64,000 nt of DNA from Escherichia coli (GCF_051903065.1 NZ_CP178438.1), one strand, 5' to 3'. Positions 12,512 to 39,425 are shown, numbered from the stretch's first letter. Notes: generated from the sequence alone by a model not told the origin. Program-made: numbers and translations.

Positions 12512-13059
12512 TGAAGGCGATTGAAACCATACAGCGACAACTCCTCGGCCTGATTGGGCGGGCGGTGGTGAAAAGCATCAGTGCCGCCACGAAATGTCAG
12601 ACCGTGGATGTGTCCCTGATTGCCGGTGAACCCAAAGCCGGGGTTGAACATCTTGAACCCTACGGTTTTACCGCAAGGGCAAACAGCGGTGCGGAAGCGG
12701 TGGTGTTGTTTCCGGATGGTGACCGTTCTCATGCGGTGGTTGTTACGGTGTCGGACCGGCGCTACCGCCTGAAAGGGCTGCAGACGGGTGAGGTGGCTGT
12801 CTATGACGATCAGGGGCAGTCCGTGACGCTGACCCGGGCGGGGATCGTGGTGGACGGTGCAGGGAAAACGATCACGTTTCGCAATGCGCCTAAGGCTCGT
12901 TTTGAAATGGACCTGGAAGTGACCGGACAGGTGAAAGACCTGTGCGACTCCAGCGGCACCACCATGTCAGCGATGAGGCTTGCCTATAACGGGCATCGTC
13001 ACAGAGAGAACGGTCAGGGCAGTAACACCGACAAACCTGATAAAGCGATGGAGGCATGA
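12511..13059 (+). CDS. baseplate assembly protein V (spike)
   Basis: 182-aa ORF, gpV-like sequence, synteny. Confidence 0.65.
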   Translation: MKAIETIQRQLLGLIGRAVVKSISAATKCQTVDVSLIAGEPKAGVEHLEPYGFTARANSGAEAVVLFPDGDRSHAVVVTVSDRRYRLKGLQTGEVAVYDDQGQSVTLTRAGIVVDGAGKTITFRNAPKARFEMDLEVTGQVKDLCDSSGTTMSAMRLAYNGHRHRENGQGSNTDKPDKAMEA

Positions 13060-13484
13060 TGGAACTGTGGCTGACGGTGAACGGTAAACGCACCTGCGCC
13101 AGCGCACCGCTGGATCCGCTGACCCGTGCCGTGGTGATTTCCATGTTCACCTGGCGGCGGGCTGAACCTGATGACAATGCCGACGTCCCGATGGGATGGT
13201 GGGGGGATACCTGGCCTGCGGTACAGAATGACCGTTACGGCTCCCGACTGTGGCTGCTTCAGCGCAGCAAACTGACCAATCAGCTGGTGCAGACGGTAAG
13301 GGGGTATATCCGCGAATGCCTGCAATGGATGATTGATGATGGCGTGGTGTCCCGTATTGATCTGGATATCCGCCGCACCGGGATTAATGAACTGGGTAAC
13401 AGTATCACTCTCTGGCGTCGTGACGGACCGGTAATGATTTCTTTTGATGATCTGTGGAGTGCGATAACGCATGGCGGACAGTGA
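13056..13484 (+). CDS. baseplate protein (Mu gp46 / gpW-gp25-like)
   Basis: 142-aa ORF, overlapping start, synteny. Confidence 0.55.
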   Translation: MMELWLTVNGKRTCASAPLDPLTRAVVISMFTWRRAEPDDNADVPMGWWGDTWPAVQNDRYGSRLWLLQRSKLTNQLVQTVRGYIRECLQWMIDDGVVSRIDLDIRRTGINELGNSITLWRRDGPVMISFDDLWSAITHGGQ

Positions 13485-14529
13485 ATTTCAGCGTCCGACG
13501 CTGGCAGAAAATATCAGTATGCTCCGTAACGATTTATTCGCCAGGCTGGATGTCAGCGACACGCTCCGGCGCATGGATGAAGACGTGCGGGCAATGGTGT
13601 ATGCGGCGGCGCTGCATACGGTTTACGGGTACATCGATTATCTGGCAATGAACATGCTGCCTGACCTGTGCGATGAGTCCTGGCTGGCGCGACATGCTGC
13701 GATGAAACGGTGTCCGCGCAAGGGGGCCACGGCTGCCAGCGGGTATATGCGCTGGGAAGGTGTCAGCGATGGCCTGAAGGTGACCGCCGGGAGTGTTATT
13801 CAGCGCGATGACCTGGTGCAGTACACGGCAACTGCCGATGCAACCAGCTCCGGTGGTGTCCTGCGCGTGCCGATCGCCTGCTCAAGTGCAGGCGCGGTCG
13901 GTAACGCTGACGACGGTACGGCATTAATCCTGGTCACGCCGGTGAATGGTCTGCCGTCTTCCGGTGTGGCTGACACCCTGACAGGCGGATTTGATACTGA
14001 AGAGCTGGAAACGTGGCGCGCCCGCGTCATTGAGCGGTATTACTGGACGCCGCAGGGCGGGGCTGACGGGGACTATGTCGTCTGGGCTAAAGAAGTGCCC
14101 GGCATTACCCGCGCATGGACATACCGTCACTGGATGGGAACGGGGACTGTCGGTGTGATGATTGCCAGCAGCGACCTGATTAATCCCATTCCGGAAGAAT
14201 CAACGGAAACGGCGGCAAGACAACATATCGGGCCACTGGCTCCGGTGGCAGGCTCTGATTTGTATGTGTTCAGGCCGGTGGCACATACGGTGGATTTTCA
14301 TATCCGCGTTACGCCGGATACACCGGAAATACGAGCCGCCATCACCGCGGAGTTGCGTTCGTTCCTGTTGCGTGATGGTTATCCGCAGGGAGAACTGAAG
14401 GTATCGCGTATCAGTGAGGCGATTTCCGGTGCAAACGGGGAATACAGCCATCAGTTGCTTGCACCGGCGGACAATATCTCCATTGCAAAAAATGAACTGG
14501 CGGTTCTGGGGACGATTTCATGGACGTGA
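13471..14529 (+). CDS. baseplate J-like protein (Mu gp47)
   Basis: 352-aa ORF, synteny between gpW-like and gpI-like genes. Confidence 0.7.
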
Positions 14530-15104
14530 CAAACGATGATTACATCCGTCTGTTGTCGGCACTGTTGCCCCCCGGTCCGGCGTGGTCAGCCAGCGATCCG
14601 GCGATTGCCGGTGCGGCACCTTCATTAACTCGTGCTCATCAGCGTGCGGATGCCCTGATGCGGGAGCTGGATCCGCGCACCACCACTGAACTGATAAACC
14701 GCTGGGAGCGTCTGTGCGGTCTGCCGGATGAATGTATTCCCGCAGGGACACAGACCCTTCGCCAGCGTCAGCAACGGCTGGATGCGAAGGTTAACCTGGC
14801 GGGCGGCATCAACGAGGATTTTTATCTTGCACAGCTTGCTGTCCTGGGCAGACCAGATGCCACCATCACGCGATACGACAAAAGCACGTTCACCTGCTCA
14901 TCGGCCTGTACTGACGCTGTGAACGCGCCTGAATGGCGGTATTACTGGCAGGTCAACATGCCAGCCGCCACCAACACCACCTGGATGACATGTGGCGATC
15001 CCTGTGATTCCGCACTGCGTATCTGGGGCGACACAGTTGTCGAATGTGTGCTTAACAAACTCTGCCCGTCGCATACCTACGTAATTTTTAAATATCCGGA
15101 GTAA
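14520..15104 (+). CDS. tail protein (Mu gp48 / P2 gpI-like)
   Basis: 194-aa ORF, synteny immediately upstream of tail fibre gene. Confidence 0.6.
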
Positions 15105-15107
15105 TCC

Positions 15108-15833
15108 ATGCATCGTATAGACACGAAAACCGCGCAGAAGGATAAGTTCGGCGCGGGTAAGAACGGTTTTACCCGTGGTAACCCCCAGACCGGCACGCCT
15201 GCCACCGATCTGGATGATGACTACTTTGACATGTTGCAGGAGGAGCTTTGCAGCGTTGTGGAGGCGTCCGGTGCCAGCCTGGAGAAGGGGCGGCACGACC
15301 AGCTACTTACCGCGCTTCGCGCGCTGCTGTTAAGCCGCAAGAATCCGTTTGGCGATATCAAATCGGATGGCACGGTGAAAACGGCTCTCGAAAACCTTGG
15401 TTTGGGGGAAGGCTCTGCGTTGCCCGTTGGTGTACCTGTTCCGTGGCCCTCAGCCACACCGCCAGCAGGGTGGCTGAAATGTAACGGCGCAGCATTTTCT
15501 TCTGAAATGTACCCCAATCTGGCAAAGGCTTATCCTACAAATAAATTACCGGATTTACGCGGTGAGTTTATTCGTGGCTGGGATGATGGGCGTGGAGTGG
15601 ATAGTGGGCGCGCGTTATTATCAACTCAAACAGATGAATTTAAATCACATAGTCATTATTTCGAAAGAACATGGGCACAAACTGGATTTGATACAACAGG
15701 TGGATATTATCTTTTAGCCGCTGATGTTTCTGGCTCAGTAAATCAACAGAGATCCGATAGCACTAACTCGGTGGGGGGGAGAGAATCTCGCCCTCGTAAT
15801 ATTGCATTTAACTATATTGTGAGAGCTGTGTAA
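15108..15833 (+). CDS. tail fibre protein; constant N-terminus (15108-15397) joined to variable C-terminus inside the invertible segment
   Basis: 241-aa ORF; crossover site lies inside the ORF at 15392-15403; followed by tail fibre assembly gene. Confidence 0.65.
15392..15403. other. left invertase crossover site (AAACC-TT-GGTTT)
   Basis: Dyad-symmetric site resembling gix/cix/hix; inverted copy at 17301-17312. Confidence 0.5.
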
Positions 15834-16435
15834 TGGATAATGCTGTATTAAATAGCGAACATATTGCTACGAAGGCTGGAAATGTTACTGTTTATAACTT
15901 TGACGGTGAAACGCGAGAGTATATTTCCCCATCTATTGAATATATTGCCGTTGGTGTCGGTATTCCGGCATATTCATGTTTAGATGCTCCTGCCACACGT
16001 AAAGATGGTTATGCAATTTGCCGTTCTGCAGATTTTAACTCATGGGAATATGTGCCAGACCATCGCGGTGAAACGGTCTATAGCACTGAAACAGGAGAAT
16101 CAAAAGAAATCACAGCTCCGGGTGATTACCCTGAAAATACAACCACTATCTCCCCATTAACGCCATACGATAAATGGGATGGTGAGAAATGGGTGACCGA
16201 TACTGAAGCACAGCATAGCGCCGCAGTAGACGCGGCAGAAGCACAGCGCCAGTCACTGATTAATGCTGCAATGGCTTCCATTAGTCTGATTCAGCTGAAA
16301 TTACAGGCCGGACGGAAACTGACGCAGGCAGAAACAACCCGGCTTAACGCTGTGCTGGATTACATTGACGCGGTGATGGCAACAGATACCAGCACCGCGC
16401 CGAATGTCATCTGGCCTGAACTGCCGGAGGCGTAG
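15833..16435 (+). CDS. tail fibre assembly protein (current orientation)
   Basis: 200-aa ORF overlapping tail fibre stop; Tfa-like. Confidence 0.6.
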   Translation: MDNAVLNSEHIATKAGNVTVYNFDGETREYISPSIEYIAVGVGIPAYSCLDAPATRKDGYAICRSADFNSWEYVPDHRGETVYSTETGESKEITAPGDYPENTTTISPLTPYDKWDGEKWVTDTEAQHSAAVDAAEAQRQSLINAAMASISLIQLKLQAGRKLTQAETTRLNAVLDYIDAVMATDTSTAPNVIWPELPEA

Positions 16436-16850
16436 GCCATTCAATATCTGGAGCACTGGAGGGATCAACCAGTTCCAGTGCGTCCAGATAATCCAGCCAT
16501 AAATTATATTGTTCCAGCTCGTCACCTTTCAGACGACCAATAGCAGCTTTGCCAGGCCACTGATGGGTATTGATGTAGGTATTGGCTTCTGAAACCAAAG
16601 ATATTTTTTTCATTTCAGCCGTCAATACCTCATCCTCTTTTGAAGGTGGTGGGGAATTAATCCATACTGGCCGTCCTGAACTGTCAGCGCCAATTTCTTT
16701 CCCTTCTGGATGCAGCCCAAGAAATTGCTCATATATTTCTCTGGTAATTTCAATAACATCATCAGGAAGCGTTCCCGCATCCTCATATTCTGGAAATAAT
16801 TCTTGCAGATAAAAACTTTTACTTCCGGGTGAAAAGAATACTGAGTTCAT
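16407..16850 (-). CDS. alternative tail fibre assembly protein (inverted copy)
   Basis: 147-aa ORF on opposite strand, convergent with 15833-16435; C-terminus similar in character (EWPxPP motif). Confidence 0.55.
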   Translation of the reverse strand: MNSVFFSPGSKSFYLQELFPEYEDAGTLPDDVIEITREIYEQFLGLHPEGKEIGADSSGRPVWINSPPPSKEDEVLTAEMKKISLVSEANTYINTHQWPGKAAIGRLKGDELEQYNLWLDYLDALELVDPSSAPDIEWPTPPAVQAR

Positions 16851-16852
16851 TC

Positions 16853-17307
16853 TTACCGTCCAATGATTAACGCTGATACGCTGGTATCTGAAGGAAAGGC
16901 TGCATTCAGTGGTTTGTCGACTTTGAACACAATCGTATTATTCCCCCTGACAGCGGCAAAAGAACAAGCCGCCGTCGCGTATGAACCTGTAATATTACTG
17001 GATACACCACCATAAGCTGTTGTTGATACCAGAGGGATAACGCCCAGCACCTTATTAGGAAATACAAAGGGCAATGTGGCTGTGGCAATATAAGACTTAT
17101 TAGAGCCTGTAATGGCATAAGCATTATCAGTCATTCCATTCATCGCCACTGGACCGCTTATACTTACAGTAACCATCTGAATGATTAGCCCGTCAGGTTG
17201 ACGAATCACAAAATTTCCATTGCCACCAGTAACCGTCCAGAAAGACATATCAGGGATTTGGTTTTCCCCGTTGCCCACATTCCGTTTTGCCGCTTCTCCC
17301 AAACCAA
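16853..17307 (-). CDS. alternative tail fibre variable C-terminal segment (promoterless until inversion)
   Basis: ORF open on minus strand up to the right crossover site; no independent start expected. Confidence 0.5.
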
Positions 17308-17312
17308 CGTTT
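17301..17312. other. right invertase crossover site (AAACC-AA-CGTTT)
   Basis: Inverted repeat of the site at 15392-15403. Confidence 0.5.
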
Positions 17313-17373
17313 ATGAAAATGCAGAAATAACGAGCAAATGGCATCATTCCTGCTTTTGTCAGGGAGATCTACC

Positions 17374-17928
17374 ATGCTTATTGGCTATGTACGTGTGTCA
17401 ACAAATGACCAGAACACAGATCTACAACGTAATGCGCTGAACTGTGCAGGATGCGAGCTGATTTTTGAAGACAAGATAAGCGGTACAAAGTCCGAAAGGC
17501 CGGGACTGAAAAAACTGCTCAGGACATTATCGGCAGGTGACACTCTGGTTGTCTGGAAGCTGGATCGGCTAGGGCGTAGTATGCGGCATCTGGTCATTCT
17601 GGTTGAGGAGTTGCGCGAACGTGGCGTTAATTTTCGCAGCCTGACGGATGCTATTGATACCAGCACACCGATGGGGCGTTTTTTCTTTCATGTGATGGGT
17701 GCCCTGGCTGAAATGGAACGAGAACTGATTGTTGAACGAACAAAAGCTGGACTGGAAGCTGCTCGCGCACAGGGACGAATTGGTGGACGTCGTCCCAAAC
17801 TTACACCAGAACAATGGGCGCAGGCCGGGCGATTAATTGCATCAGGCGTTCCTCGCCAGAAGGTGGCGATCATCTATGATGTTGGTATATCGACACTGTA
17901 TAAGAAGTTTCCGGTCGGAGATAAATGA
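17374..17928 (+). CDS. site-specific DNA invertase, serine recombinase (Pin/Gin/Hin family)
   Basis: N-terminus MLIGYVRVSTNDQNTDLQ with catalytic Ser; AGGGAG RBS; C-terminal HTH; located beside the invertible segment. Confidence 0.9.
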   Translation: MLIGYVRVSTNDQNTDLQRNALNCAGCELIFEDKISGTKSERPGLKKLLRTLSAGDTLVVWKLDRLGRSMRHLVILVEELRERGVNFRSLTDAIDTSTPMGRFFFHVMGALAEMERELIVERTKAGLEAARAQGRIGGRRPKLTPEQWAQAGRLIASGVPRQKVAIIYDVGISTLYKKFPVGDK

Positions 17929-17966
17929 AACCGTAGCACGTCGTATGCAAGATCGTGCTGCGGTTT
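17928..17966. repeat. hairpin-forming repeat A (13-bp arms, 13-nt loop), probable terminator-like element
   Basis: AAACCGTAGCACG-N13-CGTGCTGCGGTTT directly after invertase stop; imperfect direct copy at 18947-18983. Confidence 0.5.
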
Positions 17967-17985
17967 ATGCTTATCACTTAAAGAC

Positions 17986-18855
<870 letters not shown>

Positions 18856-18946
18856 CTAATCCTTTGAATTTACATAGTAAAAAAGATACTTTTCCTCATA
18901 GTGTGAGCTAATTTTATGTTTCGTTTGATGATCGGACCGGTCTCAA

Positions 18947-18983
18947 AAACCGCAGGCACGTTGTATGCAAGAACGTGCTGTGG
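18947..18983. repeat. repeat B, degenerate copy of repeat A
   Basis: AAACCGCAGGCACGTTGTATGCAAGAACGTGCTGTGG; about 36 of 41 positions match repeat A by hand alignment. Confidence 0.45.
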
Positions 18984-19318
18984 CTGGCTGGTGAACTTCC
19001 AATAGTGCGAATATTGAATGATTTCTATCTGTTATAGATTTTACCGTATTTCGGCATGAATGAAACTGAATATCCTCCCACCGATTCTCCATGACTTTAC
19101 GCCACTGTCTCTAGGGCTGCTATGTGCCAGAGGCGGACGTTGTTAAAATAGAAAATATCCCAACCTTGTATGAGTCGTGCAATAATTTCGAACTTTATAC
19201 AAAGCTTTGGTTGTAAAGGTGTATAACCACAAGTGACATTAATCACATTTGTAAAGGCAAAATGCAACAAACTGAATTAGTTAATTGCGTAAATTTGAAG
19301 TTATGTTAAGGTGGTGAT

Positions 19319-19451
19319 GGTTTATGGGCAGATTTTGGGTCGCGTTTCGCGATCAGTGAAAAAAATGTCCGATAGGATTGCCTTTCAGGATCTCATGTTC
19401 CTCGCATTTCTTAAGGTTCTTGTCAAGTTTGCGTAAGAGTGCCCATAAACC
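19319..19451 (+). ncRNA. candidate retron msr/msd non-coding RNA bounded by a1/a2 inverted repeats
   Basis: Perfect 12-bp inverted repeat GGTTTATGGGCA (19319-19330) / TGCCCATAAACC (19440-19451), the latter 19 nt upstream of the RT start; internal hairpin TCGCG-TTT-CGCGA at 19340-19352. Confidence 0.4.
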
Positions 19452-19470
19452 CTTTTAGAGGCGATCTAAA

Positions 19471-21306
19471 GTGAAACGACTACAATCATTAAAAGAAGCA
19501 AAAACAAAACCAGACTTGGCTAAGCTATTAGGAATCAAACCTTCAGCGTTAACATACTGCCTATATGTATTAAAACCTGAAAATCAATACACACAGTTTA
19601 AGATACCAAAAAAAAATGGCGGCGAACGGATAATAAGTGCACCTAACGGAATATTAAAGACGATACAGTCATCCTTATCAAGACTGCTTCTAGATTGCTT
19701 AGACGAAATAGTTTGCATTAAGTTTCCAGACTCAGAGTTAGCAAGGCAGAAAGCAAAAAACTCAAAAATATTAAAGTTAAAATGTTCCAACTCAGAAATC
19801 AAACAACCCTCACTGTCTCATGGATTTGAAAGAAAGCGTTCAATTATTACAAATGCAATGATGCACTTGGGGAAAAAATATGTTTTTAATATAGACTTGG
19901 ATAATTTTTTCGGCAGTTTTAACTTTGGTAGAGTCCGAGGTTTTTTCATAAAAAATAGAAACTTTGCACTCGATCCGGAAATCGCAACTGTAATTGCTAA
20001 AATTGCGTGCTACAACAATGAACTACCCCAAGGCAGCCCATGCTCCCCAGTAATCACTAATCTAATCACTCACTCGTTAGACATTAAACTGGCAGCGATT
20101 GCATCAAGAAACTCATCCACTTTTACAAGATATGCTGATGATATTACATTCTCTACGAGGAAGGGGGAGTTTCCTTCTGCTATAGCAAAAAATCAAAATG
20201 GTAAATATATCGTTAGTAAGAAAATTAGGGGCGAGATAACTCGCTCAGGTTTTATAATTAATGATGGGAAGACAAGAAATCAGTATAAAGACTCGAGGCA
20301 AGATGTAACAGGCTTAGTGGTTAATAAAAAGCCAAACACGAAAAAAGAATATTGGAGGCTTGTGCGTGCGCAATGTGACCATTTATTTAAACATGGTGAG
20401 TTCTTAGAGGTGATTGACGGCAAGGAAATAAAGGGGAATGTTAATAGCCTTGCAGGCAAACTTAACTTCATAGACCAAGTTGACCACTATAATAGATTGC
20501 GTCAAGGCGAAAAATTAAATCCAAAATATCACTTAAAAAAAGATGCCAATAAAAATGGCCATGCCAAAAAAAGGCGTTACTTACATAGTTCTAGAGAAAA
20601 AACGTTTAGTGAGTTTCTCTTCTATCGTTTATTTTATGGCAATGAATTACCAACAATTCTTACGGAAGGTAAAACTGACAATATTTATCTGAAGGCAGCA
20701 ATACATAAGTTAGCCTCATCATTCCCTAATTTGGCGGTCGCTGAAAGTCCAGGGCTCTCTTATAAGCCACGGACTAAATTTGTTAACTACAATGAGCGGA
20801 CAAAATATTTACTTGAACTTTATGGTGGTGCTGATTATTTAAAGGATTTTGTTATTCATTATAAACAACACTTTAATCGTTATAAGGCTCCCAAACCATC
20901 TAATCCAGTAATTATACTTGTTGATAATGATAGCGGACCAAAAGATCTGATTAATTACGTTAGTAAAGTTGATAATATTGGTATTTTCCCCACAGGTGTT
21001 CCAGATATCCGCGCCTCTGAGTTTGTACATATTTTTTGTAATCTTTATTTAGTGCTTACCCCTCAAGTTAAGGGATATACAGGAACTGATATAGAGCATT
21101 TTTTTAAAGATACAGATCGACTTAGACCACATAAAGGTAAGTTTTTCAATACAGTCTCTAAGCGTGATCATGATAATGATTTGAGCAAGGAATCTTTCGC
21201 AACTCATATTGTTCATGCCCACAAGCATGAAATTGATTTTAGTGGATTTACAAGCCTGTTAGAACGGTTAGTAAAAGTCATAAATCACTTTGACACTGTT
21301 AAGTAA
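19471..21306 (+). CDS. retron-type reverse transcriptase fused to a C-terminal Toprim domain (Retron-Eco2/Ec67-like architecture)
   Basis: 611 aa; NAMMH (NAxxH) at about 128-132, motif A NIDLDNFF, QGSPCSP, YADD at 221-224, VTG at 279-281; C-terminal TEGKTD and DND motifs suggestive of Toprim; GTG start after AGAGG. Confidence 0.8.
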   Translation: MKRLQSLKEAKTKPDLAKLLGIKPSALTYCLYVLKPENQYTQFKIPKKNGGERIISAPNGILKTIQSSLSRLLLDCLDEIVCIKFPDSELARQKAKNSKILKLKCSNSEIKQPSLSHGFERKRSIITNAMMHLGKKYVFNIDLDNFFGSFNFGRVRGFFIKNRNFALDPEIATVIAKIACYNNELPQGSPCSPVITNLITHSLDIKLAAIASRNSSTFTRYADDITFSTRKGEFPSAIAKNQNGKYIVSKKIRGEITRSGFIINDGKTRNQYKDSRQDVTGLVVNKKPNTKKEYWRLVRAQCDHLFKHGEFLEVIDGKEIKGNVNSLAGKLNFIDQVDHYNRLRQGEKLNPKYHLKKDANKNGHAKKRRYLHSSREKTFSEFLFYRLFYGNELPTILTEGKTDNIYLKAAIHKLASSFPNLAVAESPGLSYKPRTKFVNYNERTKYLLELYGGADYLKDFVIHYKQHFNRYKAPKPSNPVIILVDNDSGPKDLINYVSKVDNIGIFPTGVPDIRASEFVHIFCNLYLVLTPQVKGYTGTDIEHFFKDTDRLRPHKGKFFNTVSKRDHDNDLSKESFATHIVHAHKHEIDFSGFTSLLERLVKVINHFDTVK

Positions 21307-30325: not shown

Positions 30326-31258
30326 TTAATTCTCCCGATGCAGTAAATCCTGATAGATCCCCGTTAATATGCCATTTGGCGCAAATTGTTTTTTAATCCA
30401 CTGCGTCACCTGACCCGTAGCAGAATGCTGAGTCGCCAGTAACATGCGCGAATCCTGGCGCGGATTATGGATTTGTCGGGTAACCAGCAGGGATTGCGTC
30501 ATCGCCTCACGGACCATGTAATCCGGCAAAAAACCAATCCCTTCACCTAAAATCTGGCACTGACATTTGGTGTTGAAATCTGGCACCAGAATTGACTCCT
30601 GCCCGTGCAGCAACCAGCCCACTTTTTTATTAATCGTATGCGCGGTGTCCTCCACCATAATATTAGGGTAGAGACGCAGTTGGCTTTCGGCGATGGGTTC
30701 CGGCACAAAGGCTAACGGGTGATCCGGGGCGATAGCAAAAGCCCAGCGAATCGCGCCAATTTCAGTGTAATCAATACCGCCGCCGTCCAGTAGTGTATCG
30801 GGTGCGCCGATGGCGATATTGGCCTGATTATTAATAATCGCATCCCAGACGCCGTTATACACTTCGGTCGTCACGGTAATCTGGCAGGTAGGAAACTGCT
30901 TTTTCAGCACCTGTAATAAGCGCGCGGTGTGTTTGGGCGTATAAAGCAGCTGATTAATACAAATGCGCACACGCGCTTCTATGCCCTGCGAAATAGTATC
31001 GATACTGCGTTTGATGGCGTGAAAATCATTCAGCAGGTCGGTAGCTTTGCGGAAAAAATAACGCCCGGACTCCGTTAACTCAATGCTGCGGGTACTGCGA
31101 GTGAACAGCACCACATCCAGCCCCGTCTCCATACGCTTAATGGTGTAGCTAATGGCGGAAGTGGTTAAACCCAACTCTTCTGCGGCTTTACTGAAACTGC
31201 CAAAACGCGCAGCGGTAGTAAATGCCAACAGATTCTCTTCGGTAAAAATTGAGTTCAT
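30326..31258 (-). CDS. yahB: LysR-family transcriptional regulator
   Basis: 310-aa ORF, N-terminal HTH, LysR substrate-binding fold; K-12 synteny. Confidence 0.85.
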   Translation of the reverse strand: MNSIFTEENLLAFTTAARFGSFSKAAEELGLTTSAISYTIKRMETGLDVVLFTRSTRSIELTESGRYFFRKATDLLNDFHAIKRSIDTISQGIEARVRICINQLLYTPKHTARLLQVLKKQFPTCQITVTTEVYNGVWDAIINNQANIAIGAPDTLLDGGGIDYTEIGAIRWAFAIAPDHPLAFVPEPIAESQLRLYPNIMVEDTAHTINKKVGWLLHGQESILVPDFNTKCQCQILGEGIGFLPDYMVREAMTQSLLVTRQIHNPRQDSRMLLATQHSATGQVTQWIKKQFAPNGILTGIYQDLLHREN

Positions 31259-31349: not shown

Positions 31350-31847
31350 TTAATACCCGTCGCGTTTAGTCGTCGCTTCGCTTAATTTTTGTCCACCATA
31401 TTCTGAAATTATCCCCACGCAGTTACCCGCCAGAAAACCCAGTAATGTCACCGTCCAGTTCATCCCGCTGGCAAAAAACAGCGTCATGCCGAGAAAGCCA
31501 CCGGGAATAAATGACAGTAACCAGAAACGCCCTTGCCAGACCACCACCGCCGAGAAGGGTACGGTAGTAATTACGCTCGCCCAGAACGCGGACAGTCCAC
31601 TTACAGAGGCCAGCCAACCAGCAGCCAGCGCGGCGAAAAACGCCCACACCATCCCGGAATAATTAACCGCCAGACTTCTGATAAACCCCGATTTACCGCC
31701 GCCTGCGGCATAAAAACTGCAAAAGGCGACGAAGCCAATGGTTCCTAATAATTCCCATCCCTGAGAGAGCCCGACATGTGAAGACACTAACTGCCAAAGC
31801 CCTGCACAAATACCGACGGTGACACCCGTTGCCGTGAGTCCGTTCAT
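31350..31847 (-). CDS. yahC: inner membrane protein
   Basis: 165-aa hydrophobic ORF, K-12 synteny. Confidence 0.8.
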   Translation of the reverse strand: MNGLTATGVTVGICAGLWQLVSSHVGLSQGWELLGTIGFVAFCSFYAAGGGKSGFIRSLAVNYSGMVWAFFAALAAGWLASVSGLSAFWASVITTVPFSAVVVWQGRFWLLSFIPGGFLGMTLFFASGMNWTVTLLGFLAGNCVGIISEYGGQKLSEATTKRDGY

Positions 31848-32104: not shown

Positions 32105-32710
32105 ATGAGTATAAAAAATCTACCTGCCGACTATTTATTGGCTGCACAACAGGGTGATATCGATAAAGTAAAAACCTGCCTTGCGCTGGGTGTCGATATT
32201 AATACCTGCGATCGTCAGGGGAAAACGGCAATTACGCTGGCAAGTTTATATCAGCAATATGCTTGCGTTCAGGCATTAATTGATGCCGGAGCGGATATTA
32301 ATAAGCAAGATCATACCTGTTTAAATCCTTTTTTAATCAGTTGCCTGAACGGTGATTTAACGCTACTACGAATTATTTTACCGGCTAAACCCGATCTTAA
32401 TTGTGTAACCCGTTTCGGCGGTGTCGGCCTGACGCCTGCCTGTGAAAAAGGTCACTTAAGTATTGTGAAAGAGCTTTTGGCGCATACGGATATTAACGTT
32501 AACCAGACCAACCATGTAGGCTGGACGCCGCTACTGGAAGCGATTGTGCTTAATGATGGTGGTATTAAACAGCAGGCGATTGTGCAGTTATTGCTGGAAC
32601 ACGGTGCCAGCCCGCATCTGACCGATAAATATGGCAAAACGCCACTGGAACTGGCGCGGGAACGGGGCTTTGAAGAGATTGCGCAGTTACTGATTGCCGC
32701 AGGTGCATAA
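32105..32710 (+). CDS. yahD: ankyrin-repeat protein
   Basis: 201-aa ORF with repeated ankyrin-like motifs (GKTAITLA, GWTPLLEA, GKTPLELA). Confidence 0.8.
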   Translation: MSIKNLPADYLLAAQQGDIDKVKTCLALGVDINTCDRQGKTAITLASLYQQYACVQALIDAGADINKQDHTCLNPFLISCLNGDLTLLRIILPAKPDLNCVTRFGGVGLTPACEKGHLSIVKELLAHTDINVNQTNHVGWTPLLEAIVLNDGGIKQQAIVQLLLEHGASPHLTDKYGKTPLELARERGFEEIAQLLIAAGA

Positions 32711-32749: not shown

Positions 32750-33613
32750 GTGTGGGCGCTAACTGCGGATGCGGATTTTCTGGCGCAGCGGGGGCAAGGA
32801 CAGGTTGAACAGGTCTTTGCCAGAGCGGTAAATATCGCACTCCCGGCTCGCCAGCAGTTGCTGACGCTGCTTTGTGAAGAGTACGACAATGCGCCAAACA
32901 GTTGTCGGTTGGCACTCACTCACTTTGATGGTCTGTTCCGGCATGGTGATAAGGTTCAGTTTGACGATCAAGGCATTACGGTTGGTCAACATCTTCATAT
33001 AGAGATGAGTCGTTGTCGGCGTTGGCTGTCCCCAACCTTGCAAATGACCGCTGTGAATTTTCACCTTATCGCCTGGCAACAGTGGCACGACATTATTCAT
33101 CAGCACTTGGGGGAAAATGAAACCCTGTTTAATTATCGCGGCGATAATCCGTTTTATCAGGCGTTAAATAAAGAATTACATATTAAACGACGGGCAGTTA
33201 TTCAGACAGTAAACGATAAGCAAAATATCGCCTCAGCGGTCACCAGTATGATTGGGTTAGGGATTGGCCTTACGCCATCAGCCGACGATTATTTAACAGG
33301 TCTGGCGCTTATTTTATTTATTCCCGGGCATCCGGCGGAAAAATACAAAGAGGAATTTTATCTCGGTCTGCAACGCGGCAGAAATAATACCACATTATTA
33401 AGTGCTATAACGCTGGAAGCCGCATTACAACAACGTTGCCGGGAAAATATTCATCGTTTTATTCACAACATTATTTATGACATCCCTGGGAACGCAACTC
33501 AGGCAATAGAAAAAATTAAACATATTGGCTCCAGTTCCGGCTGCGACATGCTGTATGGCATGGCCGATGGTTGTGCGCTGAGCCAAACCTACGGAGGGAA
33601 TTATGTCAGTTAA
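32750..33613 (+). CDS. yahE: DUF2877-like protein (YlbF paralogue)
   Basis: 287-aa ORF, K-12 synteny. Confidence 0.75.
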   Translation: MWALTADADFLAQRGQGQVEQVFARAVNIALPARQQLLTLLCEEYDNAPNSCRLALTHFDGLFRHGDKVQFDDQGITVGQHLHIEMSRCRRWLSPTLQMTAVNFHLIAWQQWHDIIHQHLGENETLFNYRGDNPFYQALNKELHIKRRAVIQTVNDKQNIASAVTSMIGLGIGLTPSADDYLTGLALILFIPGHPAEKYKEEFYLGLQRGRNNTTLLSAITLEAALQQRCRENIHRFIHNIIYDIPGNATQAIEKIKHIGSSSGCDMLYGMADGCALSQTYGGNYVS

Positions 33614-35150
33614 AATAGTCATTAAACCGAATACCTATTTTGATTCTGTCTCGCTGATGTCTATCTCCACGCGTGCAAATAAACTCGACGGCGTCGAGCA
33701 GGCATTTGTGGCGATGGCGACCGAAATGAATAAAGGCGTGCTGAAGAATTTAGGACTGCTGACGCCGGAGCTGGAGCAGGCGAAAAACGGCGACCTGATG
33801 ATTGTCATCAATGGTAAATCGGGTGCGGACAATGAGCAGTTGCTGGCGGAGATTGAAGAACTGTTCAACACCAAAGCGCAAAGCGGCTCGCACGAGGCGC
33901 GTTACGCCACTATTGCCAGCGCCAAAAAGCATATCCCGGAAAGTAACCTGGCGGTGATTTCGGTCAACGGTCTGTTTGCCGCTCGCGAAGCGCGTCAGGC
34001 GCTGCAAAACGATCTCAACGTGATGCTGTTTTCCGATAACGTCTCAGTTGAAGATGAACTGGCGCTCAAGCAACTGGCCCACGAAAAAGGGCTGCTGATG
34101 ATGGGGCCAGACTGCGGCACGGCGATTATCAACGGTGCGGCGCTCTGCTTTGGTAACGCCGTGCGTCGCGGCAACATCGGTATTGTTGGCGCATCCGGCA
34201 CCGGCAGCCAGGAGCTGAGCGTCCGCATTCATGAATTTGGTGGCGGCGTTTCACAACTGATTGGCACCGGCGGGCGCGACCTGAGCGAGAAAATCGGCGG
34301 CCTGATGATGCTCGACGCCATCGGGATGCTGGAAAACGATCCGCAAACTGAAATTATAGCGCTGATTTCAAAACCTCCCGCGCCTGCGGTGGCCCGTAAA
34401 GTGCTGGAACGCGCCCGCGCCTGCCGCAAGCCGGTGGTGGTCTGCTTCCTCGGTCGTGGCGAAACGCCAGTGGATGAGCAGGGGCTACAGTTTGCCCGCG
34501 GCACCAAAGAAGCGGCGCTGAAAGCGGTGATGCTCTCCGGCGTGAAACAGGAAAATCTCGACCTGCATACCCTGAACCAGCCGTTGATTGCGGATGTGCG
34601 TGCGCGTCTGCAACCGCAGCAGAAATACATTCGTGGCCTGTTCTGCGGCGGCACGTTGTGCGACGAAACCATGTTCGCGGTGATGGAAAAACATGGCGAT
34701 GTCTACAGCAACATTCAGCCCGATCCGGAATTCCGCCTGAAAGATATCAACCGCAGCATTAAACACACCTTCCTCGACTTTGGCGATGACGACTTCACCA
34801 ACGGCAAGCCGCACCCGATGATTGACCCCACCAACCGTATCAGCCGCTTGATCGAAGAAGCGCGCGATCCAGAAGTGGCGGTGATCGTGATGGATTTTGT
34901 GCTCGGATTTGGATCGCATGAAGATCCGGTCGGCTCCACCATCGAGGCGATCAAAGAAGCGAAAGCGATCGCCGCTGCCGAAGGACGCGAGTTGATCATT
35001 CTCGCCTATGTGCTGGGTACCGATCTTGATACGCCATCGTTAGAACAACAAAGCCAGATGCTGCTTGATGCCGGAGTGATTCTGGCGAGCAGCAGCACCA
35101 ATACCGGATTGCTGGCGCGTGAATTTATCTGCAAAGGGGAGGAAGCCTGA
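33603..35150 (+). CDS. yahF: FdrA-like protein (acyl-CoA synthetase alpha-subunit-like CoA-binding fold)
   Basis: 515-aa ORF with Gly-rich nucleotide/CoA-binding motifs; K-12 synteny. Confidence 0.8.
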   Translation: MSVKIVIKPNTYFDSVSLMSISTRANKLDGVEQAFVAMATEMNKGVLKNLGLLTPELEQAKNGDLMIVINGKSGADNEQLLAEIEELFNTKAQSGSHEARYATIASAKKHIPESNLAVISVNGLFAAREARQALQNDLNVMLFSDNVSVEDELALKQLAHEKGLLMMGPDCGTAIINGAALCFGNAVRRGNIGIVGASGTGSQELSVRIHEFGGGVSQLIGTGGRDLSEKIGGLMMLDAIGMLENDPQTEIIALISKPPAPAVARKVLERARACRKPVVVCFLGRGETPVDEQGLQFARGTKEAALKAVMLSGVKQENLDLHTLNQPLIADVRARLQPQQKYIRGLFCGGTLCDETMFAVMEKHGDVYSNIQPDPEFRLKDINRSIKHTFLDFGDDDFTNGKPHPMIDPTNRISRLIEEARDPEVAVIVMDFVLGFGSHEDPVGSTIEAIKEAKAIAAAEGRELIILAYVLGTDLDTPSLEQQSQMLLDAGVILASSSTNTGLLAREFICKGEEA

Positions 35151-36568
35151 TGAGCCAGTCACTGTTTAGCCAACCATTGAACGTTATTAACGTCGGCATC
35201 GCCATGTTTAGCGATGACCTGAAAAAGCAGCATGTAGAAGTGACTCAACTCGACTGGACGCCGCCGGGGCAGGGCAATATGCAGGTGGTGCAGGCGCTGG
35301 ATAACATTGCCGATTCGCCGCTGGCAGACAAAATCGCCGCCGCTAACCAGCAGGCGCTGGAGCGCATTATCCAGTCGCATCCGGTGCTGATTGGTTTTGA
35401 TCAGGCGATTAACGTGGTGCCGGGCATGACGCCGAAAACCATTCTTCACGCCGGGCCGCCGATCACCTGGGAAAAAATGTGCGGCGCGATGAAAGGCGCG
35501 GTCACCGGAGCGCTGGTGTTCGAAGGACTGGCGAAAGATCTCGACGAGGCGGCTGAACTGGCGGCTTCCGGGGAGATCACCTTCTCGCCGTGTCACGAGC
35601 ACGACTGCGTGGGATCGATGGCGGGTGTTACCTCGGCCTCGATGTTTATGCACATCGTAAAAAACAAAACCTACGGCAACATCGCTTATACCAACATGAG
35701 CGAGCAGATGGCGAAGATTTTGCGTATGGGCGCTAACGACCAGAGCGTGATTGACCGCCTGAACTGGATGCGTGATGTGCAGGGACCAATACTGCGCGAC
35801 GCGATGAAAATTATCGGCGAAATCGATCTGCGCTTAATGCTGGCGCAGGCGCTGCATATGGGCGATGAGTGCCATAACCGCAATAACGCCGGGACGACGC
35901 TGCTGATTCAGGCGCTGACGCCGGGGATTATCCAGGCGGGCTATTCCGTCGCGCAACAGCGCGAAGTGTTTGAGTTTGTCGCCAGCAGCGACTACTTCTC
36001 CGGCCCGACGTGGATGGCGATGTGTAAAGCGGCGATGGATGCGGCGCACGGCATCGAATACAGCACCGTGGTCACCACCATGGCGCGTAACGGCGTCGAG
36101 TTCGGCCTGCGGGTCAGCGGATTACCGGGGCAATGGTTTACCGGTCCGGCGCAGCAGGTCATCGGCCCGATGTTTGCCGGTTATAAGCCGGAAGATTCGG
36201 GGCTGGATATCGGCGATAGCGCCATCACAGAAACCTACGGTATTGGCGGGTTTGCTATGGCGACCGCACCCGCTATCGTCGCGCTGGTGGGCGGCACGGT
36301 GGAAGAGGCTATCGATTTCTCCCGTCAGATGCGCGAAATCACCCTTGGCGAAAACCCCAACGTCACCATTCCGCTGCTCGGTTTTATGGGCGTGCCATCG
36401 GCAATCGACATCACCCGCGTGGGTAGCAGCGGCATTCTGCCAGTGATCAACACCGCCATCGCCCATAAAGATGCGGGCGTCGGCATGATTGGCGCGGGCA
36501 TTGTGCATCCACCTTTTGCCTGCTTCGAGAAAGCCATTCTTGGCTGGTGCGAACGTTACGGCGTCTGA
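35150..36568 (+). CDS. yahG: DUF1116 protein (YlbE paralogue)
   Basis: 472-aa ORF, start overlaps yahF stop, K-12 synteny. Confidence 0.8.
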   Translation: MSQSLFSQPLNVINVGIAMFSDDLKKQHVEVTQLDWTPPGQGNMQVVQALDNIADSPLADKIAAANQQALERIIQSHPVLIGFDQAINVVPGMTPKTILHAGPPITWEKMCGAMKGAVTGALVFEGLAKDLDEAAELAASGEITFSPCHEHDCVGSMAGVTSASMFMHIVKNKTYGNIAYTNMSEQMAKILRMGANDQSVIDRLNWMRDVQGPILRDAMKIIGEIDLRLMLAQALHMGDECHNRNNAGTTLLIQALTPGIIQAGYSVAQQREVFEFVASSDYFSGPTWMAMCKAAMDAAHGIEYSTVVTTMARNGVEFGLRVSGLPGQWFTGPAQQVIGPMFAGYKPEDSGLDIGDSAITETYGIGGFAMATAPAIVALVGGTVEEAIDFSRQMREITLGENPNVTIPLLGFMGVPSAIDITRVGSSGILPVINTAIAHKDAGVGMIGAGIVHPPFACFEKAILGWCERYGV

Positions 36569-36581
36569 CCTACATGTTCAT

Positions 36582-37046
36582 GCCGGATGCGGCGTGAACG
36601 CCTTATCCGGCCTACGAATGGCGCAAGAATCTGTAGGCCTGATAAGCGTAGCGCATCAGGCATTTGTCACCATTGCCGGATGCGGCGTGAACGCCTTATC
36701 CGGCCCACGAATGGCACGAGAATCTGTAGGCCTGATAAGCGTAGCGCATCAGGCATTTGTCACCATTGCCGGATGCGGCGTGAACGCCTTATCCGGCCTA
36801 CGAATGGCGCAAGAATTGTAGGCCTGATAAGCGTAGCGCATCAGGCATTTGTCACCATTGCCGGATGCGGCGTGAACGCCTTATCCGGCCCACGAATGGC
36901 ACGAGAATTTGTAGGCCTGATAAGCGTAGCGCATCAGGCATTTGTCACCATTGCCGGATGCGGCGTGAACGCCTTATCCGGCTTACGAGTGGCACGAGAA
37001 TTTGTAGGCCTGATAAGCGTAGCGCATCAGGCAATTTGGCGTTGGT
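36582..37046. repeat. tandem REP/BIME array, 5 units of about 93 bp
   Basis: Five near-identical tandem units each containing GCCGGATGCGGCGTGAACGCCTTATCCGGCCTAC and GTAGGCCTGATAAGCGTAGCGCATCAGGC palindromic units. Confidence 0.85.
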
Positions 37047-37082
37047 CACAACCCCATCACCCTCTGTAGCGGACATAACAAC

Positions 37083-38033
37083 ATGAAAGAGCTTGTGGTC
37101 GTTGCCATTGGTGGCAACAGCATTATCAAAGATAACGCCAGCCAGTCGATTGAGCATCAGGCGGAGGCGGTGAAAGCCGTCGCCGATACGGTGCTGGAAA
37201 TGCTGGCTTCCGATTACGACATTGTGCTGACCCACGGTAACGGGCCGCAGGTCGGGCTGGATTTACGCCGTGCGGAGATTGCCCACGAGCGCGAAGGGCT
37301 GCCCTTAACGCCGCTGGCGAACTGTGTGGCGGATACGCAAGGCGGCATTGGCTATCTGATCCAACAGGCGCTGAACAACCGACTGGCGCGTCACGGCGAG
37401 AAAAAAGCCGTCACCGTGGTGACTCAGGTGGAAGTGGATAAAAACGATCCGGGATTTGCCCATCCCACCAAGCCCATCGGCGCATTCTTTAGTGACAGCC
37501 AGCGTGACGAATTACAAAAGGCAAACCCTGACTGGTGTTTTGTTGAAGATGCCGGGCGGGGCTATCGCCGCGTAGTCGCTTCGCCGGAACCGAAACGTAT
37601 TGTCGAAGCACCGGCCATTAAGGCGCTGATCCAACAAGGCTTTGTCGTAATTGGCGCGGGCGGCGGTGGAATTCCTGTGGTGCGTACTGACGCGGGAGAT
37701 TACCAAAGCGTGGACGCGGTTATCGACAAAGATCTCTCTACCGCGCTGCTGGCCCGTGAAATTCACGCCGACATTCTGGTGATCACCACCGGGGTGGAAA
37801 AAGTGTGTATTCATTTTGGCAAACCCGAGCAGCAGGCGCTGGATCGCGTAGATATTGCCACCATGACTCGCTATATGCAGGAAGGGCATTTCCCGCCCGG
37901 CAGCATGTTGCCAAAAATCATCGCCAGCCTGACGTTCCTGGAACAGGGCGGCAAAGAAGTGATTATCACCACGCCGGAATGCCTGCCTGCGGCGCTGCGC
38001 GGTGAAACGGGCACCCATATTATTAAAACGTAA
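37083..38033 (+). CDS. yahI: carbamate kinase-like protein
   Basis: 316-aa ORF, amino-acid kinase fold (VVAIGGNS, VLTHGNGPQVG). Confidence 0.85.
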   Translation: MKELVVVAIGGNSIIKDNASQSIEHQAEAVKAVADTVLEMLASDYDIVLTHGNGPQVGLDLRRAEIAHEREGLPLTPLANCVADTQGGIGYLIQQALNNRLARHGEKKAVTVVTQVEVDKNDPGFAHPTKPIGAFFSDSQRDELQKANPDWCFVEDAGRGYRRVVASPEPKRIVEAPAIKALIQQGFVVIGAGGGGIPVVRTDAGDYQSVDAVIDKDLSTALLAREIHADILVITTGVEKVCIHFGKPEQQALDRVDIATMTRYMQEGHFPPGSMLPKIIASLTFLEQGGKEVIITTPECLPAALRGETGTHIIKT

Positions 38034-38042
38034 GGACGTAAG

Positions 38043-39425
38043 ATGAAAGAAAATAATAGCCGCCGTGAATTTCTGAGCCAGAGCGGTAAGATGGTCACCG
38101 CCGCCGCGCTGTTTGGTACCTCTGTGCCGCTCGCCCATGCGGCAGTCTCTGGCACAACCCACTGCGACGCGAATAACGCCATGAAAATCACTGACCCGCA
38201 CTACTATCTCGACAACGTGCTGCTGGAAACTGGATTTGACTACGAAAATGGCGTGGCGGTTCAGACCCGCACGGCGCGCCAGACCGTGGAGATTCAGAAC
38301 GGCAAAATTGTCGCGCTGCGCGAGAATAAGCAGCACCCGGATGCCACGCTTCCGCACTATGATGCTGGCGGTAAGCTGATGTTGCCCACCACCCGCGACA
38401 TGCATATTCATCTCGATAAAACCTTTTACGGCGGGCCGTGGCGCTCGCTTAATCGCCCGGCAGGCACCACCATCCAGGATATGATTAAGCTCGAGCAAAA
38501 AATGCTGCCGGAGCTGCAACCCTACACCCAGGAACGGGCGGAAAAACTGATCGATCTATTGCAGTCGAAAGGCACCACCATTGCCCGCAGTCACTGCAAT
38601 ATCGAACCGGTTTCCGGCCTGAAAAATCTGCAAAATTTGCAGGCGGTGCTGGCGCGACGTCAGGCGGGCTTTGAGTGTGAAATCGTCGCCTTCCCGCAGC
38701 ACGGTTTGCTGCTGTCGAAATCGGAACCCTTAATGCGTGAAGCAATGCAGGCGGGTGCGCATTACGTCGGCGGGCTGGACCCGACCAGTGTCGATGGCGC
38801 GATGGAAAAATCCCTCGACACCATGTTCCAGATTGCGCTGGACTACGACAAAGGCGTCGATATTCACCTGCACGAAACCACTCCGTCGGGCGTGGCAGCC
38901 ATCAATTATATGGTTGAAACGGTAGAGAAAACGCCTCAACTGAAAGGTAAGCTGACCATCAGCCACGCCTTTGCGCTGGCTACGCTCAACGAGCAACAGG
39001 TAGATGAACTGGCGCATCGCATGGCGGCGCAGCAAATTTCTATCGCCTCGACGGTGCCGATTGGCACGCTGCATATGCCGCTCAAACAGTTGCACGACAA
39101 AGGCGTAAAAGTGATGACCGGCACCGACAGCGTTATCGACCACTGGTCGCCTTATGGTCTGGGCGACATGCTGGAAAAAGCCAATCTGTACGCGCAGCTC
39201 TATATTCGTCCTAACGAACAGAACCTCTCCCGTTCGCTGTTTCTAGCCACTGGCGATGTATTGCCGCTGAATGAAAAAGGCGAGCGTGTATGGCCAAAAG
39301 CGCAGGATGACGCCAGCTTTGTGCTGGTGGACGCCTCCTGTTCCGCCGAAGCGGTGGCGCGTATCTCGCCGAGAACCGCAACGTTCCATAAAGGGCAACT
39401 GGTGTGGGGGAGTGTGGCAGGTTGA
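38043..39425 (+). CDS. yahJ: amidohydrolase-family deaminase with twin-arginine signal
   Basis: 460-aa ORF; RREFLSQSG Tat motif near the N-terminus; metal-dependent hydrolase HxH motif. Confidence 0.85.
   Translation: MKENNSRREFLSQSGKMVTAAALFGTSVPLAHAAVSGTTHCDANNAMKITDPHYYLDNVLLETGFDYENGVAVQTRTARQTVEIQNGKIVALRENKQHPDATLPHYDAGGKLMLPTTRDMHIHLDKTFYGGPWRSLNRPAGTTIQDMIKLEQKMLPELQPYTQERAEKLIDLLQSKGTTIARSHCNIEPVSGLKNLQNLQAVLARRQAGFECEIVAFPQHGLLLSKSEPLMREAMQAGAHYVGGLDPTSVDGAMEKSLDTMFQIALDYDKGVDIHLHETTPSGVAAINYMVETVEKTPQLKGKLTISHAFALATLNEQQVDELAHRMAAQQISIASTVPIGTLHMPLKQLHDKGVKVMTGTDSVIDHWSPYGLGDMLEKANLYAQLYIRPNEQNLSRSLFLATGDVLPLNEKGERVWPKAQDDASFVLVDASCSAEAVARISPRTATFHKGQLVWGSVAG

Follow-up and report, generated by a model that had tools for sequence, protein, structure and literature searches.

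The enzyme oxamic transcarbamylase was tied to genes only in 2024, when AllF, AllG and AllH of the Escherichia coli allantoin (all) cluster were identified as the subunits that interconvert oxalurate plus phosphate and oxamate plus carbamoyl phosphate, with AllH required for full activity (PMC11326118). Its partner AllK is a catabolic carbamate kinase (PMC11326118; PMC9843812), and AllFGH, whose Km for oxamate is 36.9 mM, is the founding member of a family unrelated to the aspartate and ornithine transcarbamylases (ATCase/OTCase). Here, a second locus of this type was analyzed in a 64,000-nucleotide (nt) window of E. coli DNA (GCF_051903065.1 NZ_CP178438.1), with the focus on positions 32750-38033 and with gene calls taken from an open reading frame listing; the RefSeq annotation of a 100%-identical chromosome stretch gave the same genes. 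A first-pass annotation had proposed that the yahE-yahF-yahG-yahI genes found here are paralogous to the ylbF-fdrA-ylbE-carbamate kinase genes of the allantoin cluster. Like AllFGH and AllK (Kim and Kim 2022, 2024), the yah genes bring the same three protein families and a carbamate kinase together in one operon with an AllS-like LysR gene nearby. On balance, we consider it probable that yahDEFG-yahI-yahJ and yahB make up another complete catabolic module of the AllFGH type, one that stands apart from the allantoin regulon. This reading draws on homology, gene order, conservation, selection and a signal peptide, from which the reaction, the order of its steps and the target of the regulator are inferred.

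All four proposed relationships were borne out when the Yah proteins were aligned directly (BLASTP) with the K-12 all-cluster proteins, as every match lay far beyond chance. YahF matched AllF at 39% identity (E 4e-103), YahG matched AllG at 45% (E 2e-119), YahI matched AllK at 38% (E 7e-57) and YahE matched AllH at 25% over 273 aa (E 3e-10). The relationship extends to the regulator, with YahB being 39% identical to AllS (E 5e-73). Family assignments by Pfam and NCBIfam cut-offs agreed with the families named previously: YahE belongs to PF11392 and YahG to PF06545, YahF passed the FdrA model (NF004760, 493.9 bits, cut-off 433) and YahI was covered along residues 1-316 of 316 by a carbamate kinase subfamily model (NF009007, 649.9 against a cut-off of 266). 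The locus therefore encodes three AllFGH-type subunits, i.e., homologues of AllF (FdrA), AllG (PF06545) and AllH (PF11392). Among solved structures, YahF matched FdrA (PDB 3dmy, E 3.1e-83), YahG matched 3clq (E 5.7e-195), which we take to be an Enterococcus faecalis protein, and YahI matched the carbamate kinases 1e19 (6.9e-83) and 1b7b (4.6e-73) over its full length. Homology to the three subunits of a biochemically proven oxamic transcarbamylase and to its kinase favors the module reading, and now that AllFGH is known to be that enzyme, the carbamoyl-phosphate-yielding catabolic route suggested earlier for the cluster becomes a natural inference.

The paralogy itself is not new, as it is already present in public annotation. 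RefSeq product names (AllH family, FdrA, YlbE family and carbamate kinase family) follow it, as the first-pass annotation had expected, and a 2025 metagenome paper uses “fdrA/yahF” as synonyms. The genes were also correctly described as poorly characterized: a 2024 y-ome survey still lists yahC/E/G/I/J as uncharacterized (PMC11551758), literature searches covering the yah names, oxalurate and DUF1116/DUF2877 brought up no study of what these genes do, and the allFGH papers do not mention them. What is added here is the place of yahD in the module, an absent permease, a shifted subunit boundary and a candidate operator, along with the description of an ancient, widespread and selectively kept system. 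As such, yahDEFGIJ would be a second, strongly conserved system of the oxamic transcarbamylase family in the best-studied bacterium.

The genes are tightly coupled, which further favors a single functional unit. The 3’ end of yahE overlaps the start of yahF by 11 nt, the yahF stop and yahG start share 1 nt, yahI and yahJ are separated by 9 nt, and natural fusions of E to F and of F to G exist elsewhere. The exception is a 514-bp gap between yahG and yahI, which lie on the same strand. The genes are part of the betT-pdeL-yah region, with a LysR gene of their own alongside, and the all cluster is a separate locus. Control by a LysR regulator, YahB, had been suggested from a divergent arrangement; the LysR gene is indeed present, although yahC (31350-31847, minus strand) intervenes, so that regulator and operon are not immediate divergent neighbors. 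All reading frames of the cluster are intact, and at least 80% of the stretch was present in 5,006 of 5,426 complete E. coli genomes, so that its earlier description as core-genome content holds in the sense of near-core.

Table 1 Features of the yah region, in positions of the 64,000-nt window.
Feature	Position	Strand	Description	Supporting match or remark
yahB	30326-31258	-	LysR-type regulator, AllS paralogue	HTH_1 and LysR_substrate domains
yahC	31350-31847	-	DUF1097 hydrophobic membrane protein	PF06496, 1.2e-26
Palindrome TTGTTGAA-N5-TTCAACAA	31981-32001		Candidate YahB operator	~125 bp upstream of yahD
yahD	32105-32710	+	Ankyrin-repeat protein, first gene of the module	Ankyrin Pfam matches
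yahE	32750-33613	+	AllH-family (DUF2877) subunit	PF11392, 1.2e-28
yahF	33603-35150	+	AllF/FdrA-family subunit, 515 aa	CoA_binding and Ligase_CoA domains
yahG	35150-36568	+	AllG/YlbE-family (DUF1116) subunit, 472 aa, N-terminal extension	PF06545, 1e-88
BIME/REP array (formerly “yahH”)	36581-37038		Repeat array	Fills the yahG-yahI gap
yahI	37083-38033	+	Carbamate kinase family, 316 aa	NF009007
yahJ	38043-39425	+	Tat-signal amidohydrolase, AtzC/cytosine-deaminase branch	NF005312

BIME, bacterial interspersed mosaic element; REP, repetitive extragenic palindromic; Tat, twin-arginine translocation.

Beyond these similarities, the yah and all systems differ in several respects. The yah genes are ordered H-F-G-K rather than F-G-H-K, the set adds the ankyrin gene yahD and the gene of a predicted Tat-exported deaminase, yahJ, and it lies outside the allantoin regulon, in which the all genes are under AllS/ArcA control. 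Protein identities are only 25-45%, and neither allF nor allG is replaced in vivo by the yah genes. YahI scored below both the arcC equivalog (TIGR00746, 345.8 against 358.25) and the AllK-type model (NF006926, 228.2 against 416) and therefore represents a distinct subfamily rather than an AllK orthologue. YahB likewise fell below the AllS equivalog cut-off (NF007501, 268.4 against 372), though this was its best NCBIfam match; it is a paralogue of AllS and not an orthologue.

A further difference concerns the boundary between the F and G subunits, which is not shared by AllF/AllG (555/419 aa) and YahF/YahG (515/472 aa). YahF lacks the ~46 residues with which AllF ends; these are found instead at the N-terminus of YahG, where residues 12-53 match the AllF C-terminal tail; a segment of ~45 aa has thus changed sides between the two systems. 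In the wider family, ~1,000-aa AllF-AllG fusions are a common natural form, and the tree shows fused, long and short versions of F and G in scattered positions. Taken together, the shifted boundary, the fusions and this scatter imply that F and G together constitute a single unit, divided at different points in different lineages. In Zophobihabitans entericus (7536-9989 of its locus), yahE and yahF are additionally joined in a single reading frame of 817 codons, which amounts to a natural E-F fusion. Invariant motifs include MGPDCGT, GASGTGxQE and GDDxxTxGxPHPMIDP in YahF, and GLGxGLTPxxDD and IGSSSGxD in YahE. The predicted YahE model is confident (mean per-residue confidence score, pLDDT, of 91.7), and a search with it found no solved structural relative.

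The depth of the separation was apparent from comparisons across phyla. YahG shares 75-79% identity with its counterparts from Brevibacillus, Paenibacillus, Azospirillum and Janthinobacterium, and 64% with that from Trichococcus. In a library clustered at 50% identity, the YahG orthologue group was represented by one full-length sequence at 76%, with the next full-length relatives at 50% or below, and AllG occupied a separate long branch in a neighbor-joining tree. As YahG retains ~75% identity across phyla but only 45% to AllG, and as the branches are separate, the two systems are ancient out-paralogues and not the products of a recent duplication. Orthologues that remain ~75% identical across phyla also indicate that the function is likely to be specific, and important wherever the full cluster exists.

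These data bear on a simpler explanation, that YahEFG is a redundant oxamic transcarbamylase isozyme acting on allantoin-derived oxalurate, with YahI as a spare AllK. YahEFG does belong to the same three-subunit family as AllFGH, and when an allFGH triple deletion was supplied with plasmid-borne allFG or allGH, 7% and 16% of oxamate were restored (PMC11326118), which could reflect cross-complementation by Yah subunits. Furthermore, the PDB 3clq protein is the G subunit of a YahEFG-type cluster on an Enterococcus-like contig, and Streptococcus faecalis has an oxamate transcarbamylase inducible by oxalurate or parabanate, according to classical work cited in PMC6022934 (its references 78 and 79). 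The inducible enzyme and this contig keep the isozyme explanation alive, and they are also why oxalurate-type compounds lead among the possible substrates. Conversely, single deletion of allF or allG left zero oxamate from allantoin with yahEFG intact (PMC11326118), so the yah genes were no substitute under those conditions. Identities of 25-45% between All and Yah proteins, set against ~75% for YahG across phyla, speak for long-separated lineages, and the yah module has a regulator, an ankyrin subunit, a deaminase and transporters of its own. Raoultella and Klebsiella spallanzanii likewise carry the module, and Klebsiella pneumoniae lacks allFGHK according to Kim and Kim (PMC11326118). We therefore consider a redundant isozyme rather unlikely, albeit worth keeping in view.

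The product name “acyl-CoA synthetase FdrA” and the CoA_binding and Ligase_CoA domains of YahF suggest a different chemistry, in which YahF and YahG would be a nucleoside diphosphate (NDP)-forming acyl-CoA synthetase that activates an organic acid with CoA. YahF indeed shares the CoA-binding Rossmann and CoA-ligase domains of succinyl-CoA synthetase and other NDP-forming acyl-CoA synthetases, and its residues 113-289 align with the succinyl-CoA synthetase alpha subunit at 97.9% probability. However, the hhalign alignment extends no further than SucD residue 240, short of the phosphohistidine loop (GHAGA) with His246, and no invariant His occurs at YahF 284-298 across the family, leaving YahF without an alignable phosphohistidine loop. 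An ATP-grasp partner is also missing, as no such domain was found by Pfam or NCBIfam among the cluster proteins. Given that the sister system AllFGH is a transcarbamylase and not a ligase (PMC11326118), and that a carbamate kinase is the constant partner gene, an acyl-CoA synthetase is highly improbable.

The last gene of the module, yahJ, encodes a putative exported deaminase. As had been noted from its sequence, YahJ is a Tat-signal amidohydrolase: it begins with MKENNSRREFLSQSG...AHA, in which SRREFLS constitutes a classical twin-arginine signal, and it scored well above the cut-off of the amidohydrolase model NF005312 (716.8 against 447). YahJ has also been listed as a predicted Tat substrate (PMC7549933). 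The RRxFL motif was present in 75 of 75 Enterobacterales orthologues and the signal was absent from Firmicute homologues, of which that of Trichococcus is 36% identical. The nearest solved structures were AtzC (N-isopropylammelide isopropylaminohydrolase; 6nbo, 4e-44) and CodA (about 1e-16 to 6e-20), placing YahJ in the same amidohydrolase branch, although it is set apart from them by the Tat signal and an N-terminus longer by about 50 residues. YahJ failed every cytosine deaminase cut-off, the best being NF005748 (103.2 against 438).

Combining these assignments, we propose that Tat-exported YahJ would act in the periplasm, where it would remove the amino group from a substituted heterocyclic precursor that is still to be taken up. 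An imported N-carbamoyl compound (most likely an oxalurate-like N-acyl-urea) would then react with phosphate on YahE, YahF and YahG, probably scaffolded by YahD and acting as a phosphorolytic carbamoyltransferase, to give carbamoyl phosphate and an amide or amine. YahI would transfer the phosphate of carbamoyl phosphate to ADP, yielding ATP, NH3 and CO2, and YahB would activate the operon through a palindrome upstream of yahD. Such a route resembles the arginine and agmatine deiminase pathways (PMC6022934), in which a deaminase, a transcarbamylase and a carbamate kinase act in succession alongside a transporter. Those pathways differ in using ATCase/OTCase-fold transcarbamylases, deiminases of the guanidino-group modifying enzyme (GME) fold and linear guanidino substrates. 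A comparable case is the ureidoglycine carbamoyltransferase Rxyl_2847 of Rubrobacter, whose gene lies beside a carbamate kinase gene and which acts in the phosphorolysis of a purine ureide (allantoate), although it is a single polypeptide with the ATCase fold and a known substrate (PMC4016543). For the yah system, oxalurate/parabanate-type purine oxidation products and their amino analogues are our leading guess, while ureidomalonate, biuret/allophanate, N-carbamoylsarcosine and ureidoimidazole carboxylate are guesses without support from gene content.

Gene neighborhoods outside the Enterobacterales, taken from eight hand-picked loci, are consistent with a route of this kind. The module occurs in Proteobacteria and Firmicutes with a shared plan comprising an ankyrin protein, AllH-, AllF- and AllG-like subunits, a polytopic membrane protein, a carbamate kinase, usually a deaminase, and a PucR- or LysR-type regulator. 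A carbamate kinase gene followed within a few genes in most related loci, with none nearby in two, and the Enterococcus-like contig held only the AllH/F/G-like genes and the membrane protein from this plan. The ankyrin gene directly precedes the gene for the AllH-like subunit in Brevibacillus, Janthinobacterium, Azospirillum and Trichococcus, and its product is fused to tetratricopeptide (TPR) repeats in the latter two genera. Since yahD was also present in 71 of 71 Enterobacterales loci, it belongs to the conserved module; the K-12 all cluster contains no counterpart. The deaminase comes from two unrelated folds, being either a YahJ-type amidohydrolase or a 150-aa CDA-type protein (Brevibacillus, Paenibacillus and Neobacillus), and the use of non-orthologous enzymes in this position argues for deamination as a genuine part of the pathway. 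In Brevibacillus and Paenibacillus, the cluster also includes NCS1 allantoin-permease-like genes. RidA (Ribonuc_L-PSP) genes were also observed near the yah-type clusters of Trichococcus (12971-14239 of its locus) and Brevibacillus (2297-2677), one of which encodes three tandem RidA-like repeats; such neighbors hint at an enamine or imine intermediate somewhere in the pathway.

A genome-collection scan returned 475 loci, the best 80 of which were all from the Enterobacterales; in this order, 71 species loci were informative. The yahB gene adjoined the module in every one (71/71). The most frequent arrangement was yahD-E-F-G-X-I-J (35/71), where X is a gene for a predicted permease located between yahG and yahI. 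A second arrangement, yahD-F-G-X-I-J, lacked yahE (20/71; Enterobacter, Leclercia, Lelliottia, Silvania and Huaxiibacter), with yahD and yahF ~55-140 bp apart (7649-9995 in one such locus, for example), and the third lacked X and carried yahC between yahB and yahD (16/71; Escherichia, Pseudocitrobacter, Kluyvera, Raoultella and Citrobacter amalonaticus). X was thus found in 55 of 71 species, from all of which yahC was absent, and yahC occurred only in the 16 loci without X. These 16 loci had the highest YahG identity to E. coli (93-99%), and the X-less form with yahC probably arose once. For this reason, the complementary distribution of YahC and X was rejected as independent evidence that YahC replaces X, as the 16 loci probably represent a single event.

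X is a protein of ~516 aa with 10-12 hydrophobic segments and 69-81% identity among Citrobacter, Janthinobacterium, Azospirillum and Neobacillus. Sequence searches of Pfam, NCBIfam and the PDB gave no match, and its AlphaFold model was weak (pLDDT 59), but the 50 top Foldseek matches listed were all transporters of the UraA/SLC26/AzgA/band-3 type. We therefore tentatively describe X as a UraA/SLC26-fold permease. The transporters associated with the module are of nucleobase or anion type, and the Escherichia lineage has lost the usual ~516-aa permease and carries yahC instead. The slot of X in the window is occupied exactly by the BIME array, a 93-bp unit repeated 4.9 times with 95% matches (Tandem Repeats Finder and direct sequence reading); the whole yahG-yahI spacer (36569-37082) amounts to about five REP pairs. 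Owing to these repeats, the query had multiple matches in E. coli genomes (median 23 per genome), in line with the published description of yahH as “filled with REP23 sites” (PMC11551758). Spacer length varies across the X-less genera, with 514 bp in the window, 319 bp in E. albertii, 235 bp in E. whittamii and 89-239 bp in Kluyvera, Raoultella and Pseudocitrobacter.

The loss of X and the array in its slot might suggest that the E. coli cluster is a decaying relic, stripped of its permease, interrupted by REP elements and disused, which would also fit with the literature on the yah genes, where no expression condition and, with a single exception, no phenotype was found. Selection and conservation point the other way. 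In comparisons with E. albertii and E. whittamii, ratios of nonsynonymous to synonymous substitution rates (dN/dS) were 0.02-0.07 for yahB, C, D, F, G, I and J, and 0.19 for yahE, and such purifying selection argues that the genes are in use and that the cluster is not decaying. Intact frames and the retention of at least 80% of the stretch in 5,006 of 5,426 genomes also run counter to disuse. The single exception, and the only phenotype found in the literature for any gene of the cluster, is that deletion of yahJ in the extraintestinal pathogenic E. coli (ExPEC) strain PCN033 slightly lowered fitness in mice (competitive index 0.70, p = 0.02; PMC7549933). A decaying relic is accordingly a very unlikely account of the locus.

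With regard to control of the module by YahB, a perfect palindrome, TTGTTGAA-N5-TTCAACAA, lies upstream of yahD and has no other match in the 64-kb window. Its arms are conserved, with a free spacer, in 74 of 78 Enterobacterales loci, in 70 of them between -118 and -201 of yahD, and the total over 1.5 Mb of Enterobacterales loci was 101 matches. LysR proteins bind T-N11-A cores, and the palindrome contains a core of this kind. Together with its position, this makes the palindrome a candidate YahB operator.

Several observations nevertheless weigh against a complete and functional module in E. coli as proposed here. The yahE gene is wholly absent in 20 of 71 species, yet AllH is needed for full AllFGH activity (PMC11326118); in yahE-less loci, the AllH-like subunit may either be dispensable or be supplied from elsewhere in the genome. 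The E. coli operon has no dedicated permease X, and the 514-bp gap that separates yahG from yahI is almost wholly BIME array. Upstream of yahD, the promoter scan found no sigma-70-like site, in a promoter and terminator scan that was uninformative, as it returned fewer promoter-like sites than in shuffled controls. In addition, a chromatin immunoprecipitation-exonuclease (ChIP-exo) study of 40 candidate regulators mentions YahB only in its candidate table. Finally, the proposal that deamination comes first is drawn from one property, the predicted periplasmic location of YahJ.

A broader evolutionary scenario, which we put forward as possible rather than probable, sees in yah what E. coli has kept of a widespread, horizontally mobile and ATP-yielding pathway for an N-heterocycle, such as a purine oxidation product of the parabanate/oxalurate type or an amino-substituted analogue. 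Its parts would be a four-component carbamoyltransferase of the AllFGH type (YahD-E-F-G), X, a dedicated carbamate kinase and a periplasmic deaminase, and the Escherichia lineage would have exchanged X for YahC. Identification of the substrate would take six or seven genes out of the E. coli y-ome, define the range of this enzyme family beyond oxalurate, and add a route by which gut and soil bacteria obtain ATP and ammonia from nitrogen heterocycles.

Additional copies and variants of the module were also observed. Compared with the window, two Pseudocitrobacter loci are mosaics, with YahF/G/I/J 97-99% identical and YahD/E/C only 56-74%, which suggests that recombination broke the operon between yahE and yahF or that its 3’ half was transferred recently. 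In 142 of 5,426 E. coli genomes, the module was present in an additional copy that includes X, and 106 of the 152 places involved were on plasmids. The IncFII plasmid p24A16CRGN010_A (3107-11540), for example, encodes a LysR regulator, ankyrin protein, AllH-like protein, FdrA, YlbE-like protein, X and carbamate kinase, without yahJ, and the copy is flanked by remnants of the insertion sequences IS1, IS3, ISL3 and IS100. Of the seven proteins, all but the carbamate kinase have their nearest orthologues in the Citrobacter freundii group (88-96% identity), whereas the kinase most resembles the Escherichia/Pseudocitrobacter type (94%); relative to the chromosomal Yah proteins, identities are 53-93%. 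E. coli 23CRST027 does not differ from the window over 32750-38033, but its allantoin cluster (12560-20264 of its locus) is damaged: IS1 interrupts allE, and an IS1 insertion has removed the N-terminus of fdrA (allF), so that yah is the only intact AllFGH-type set in that genome.

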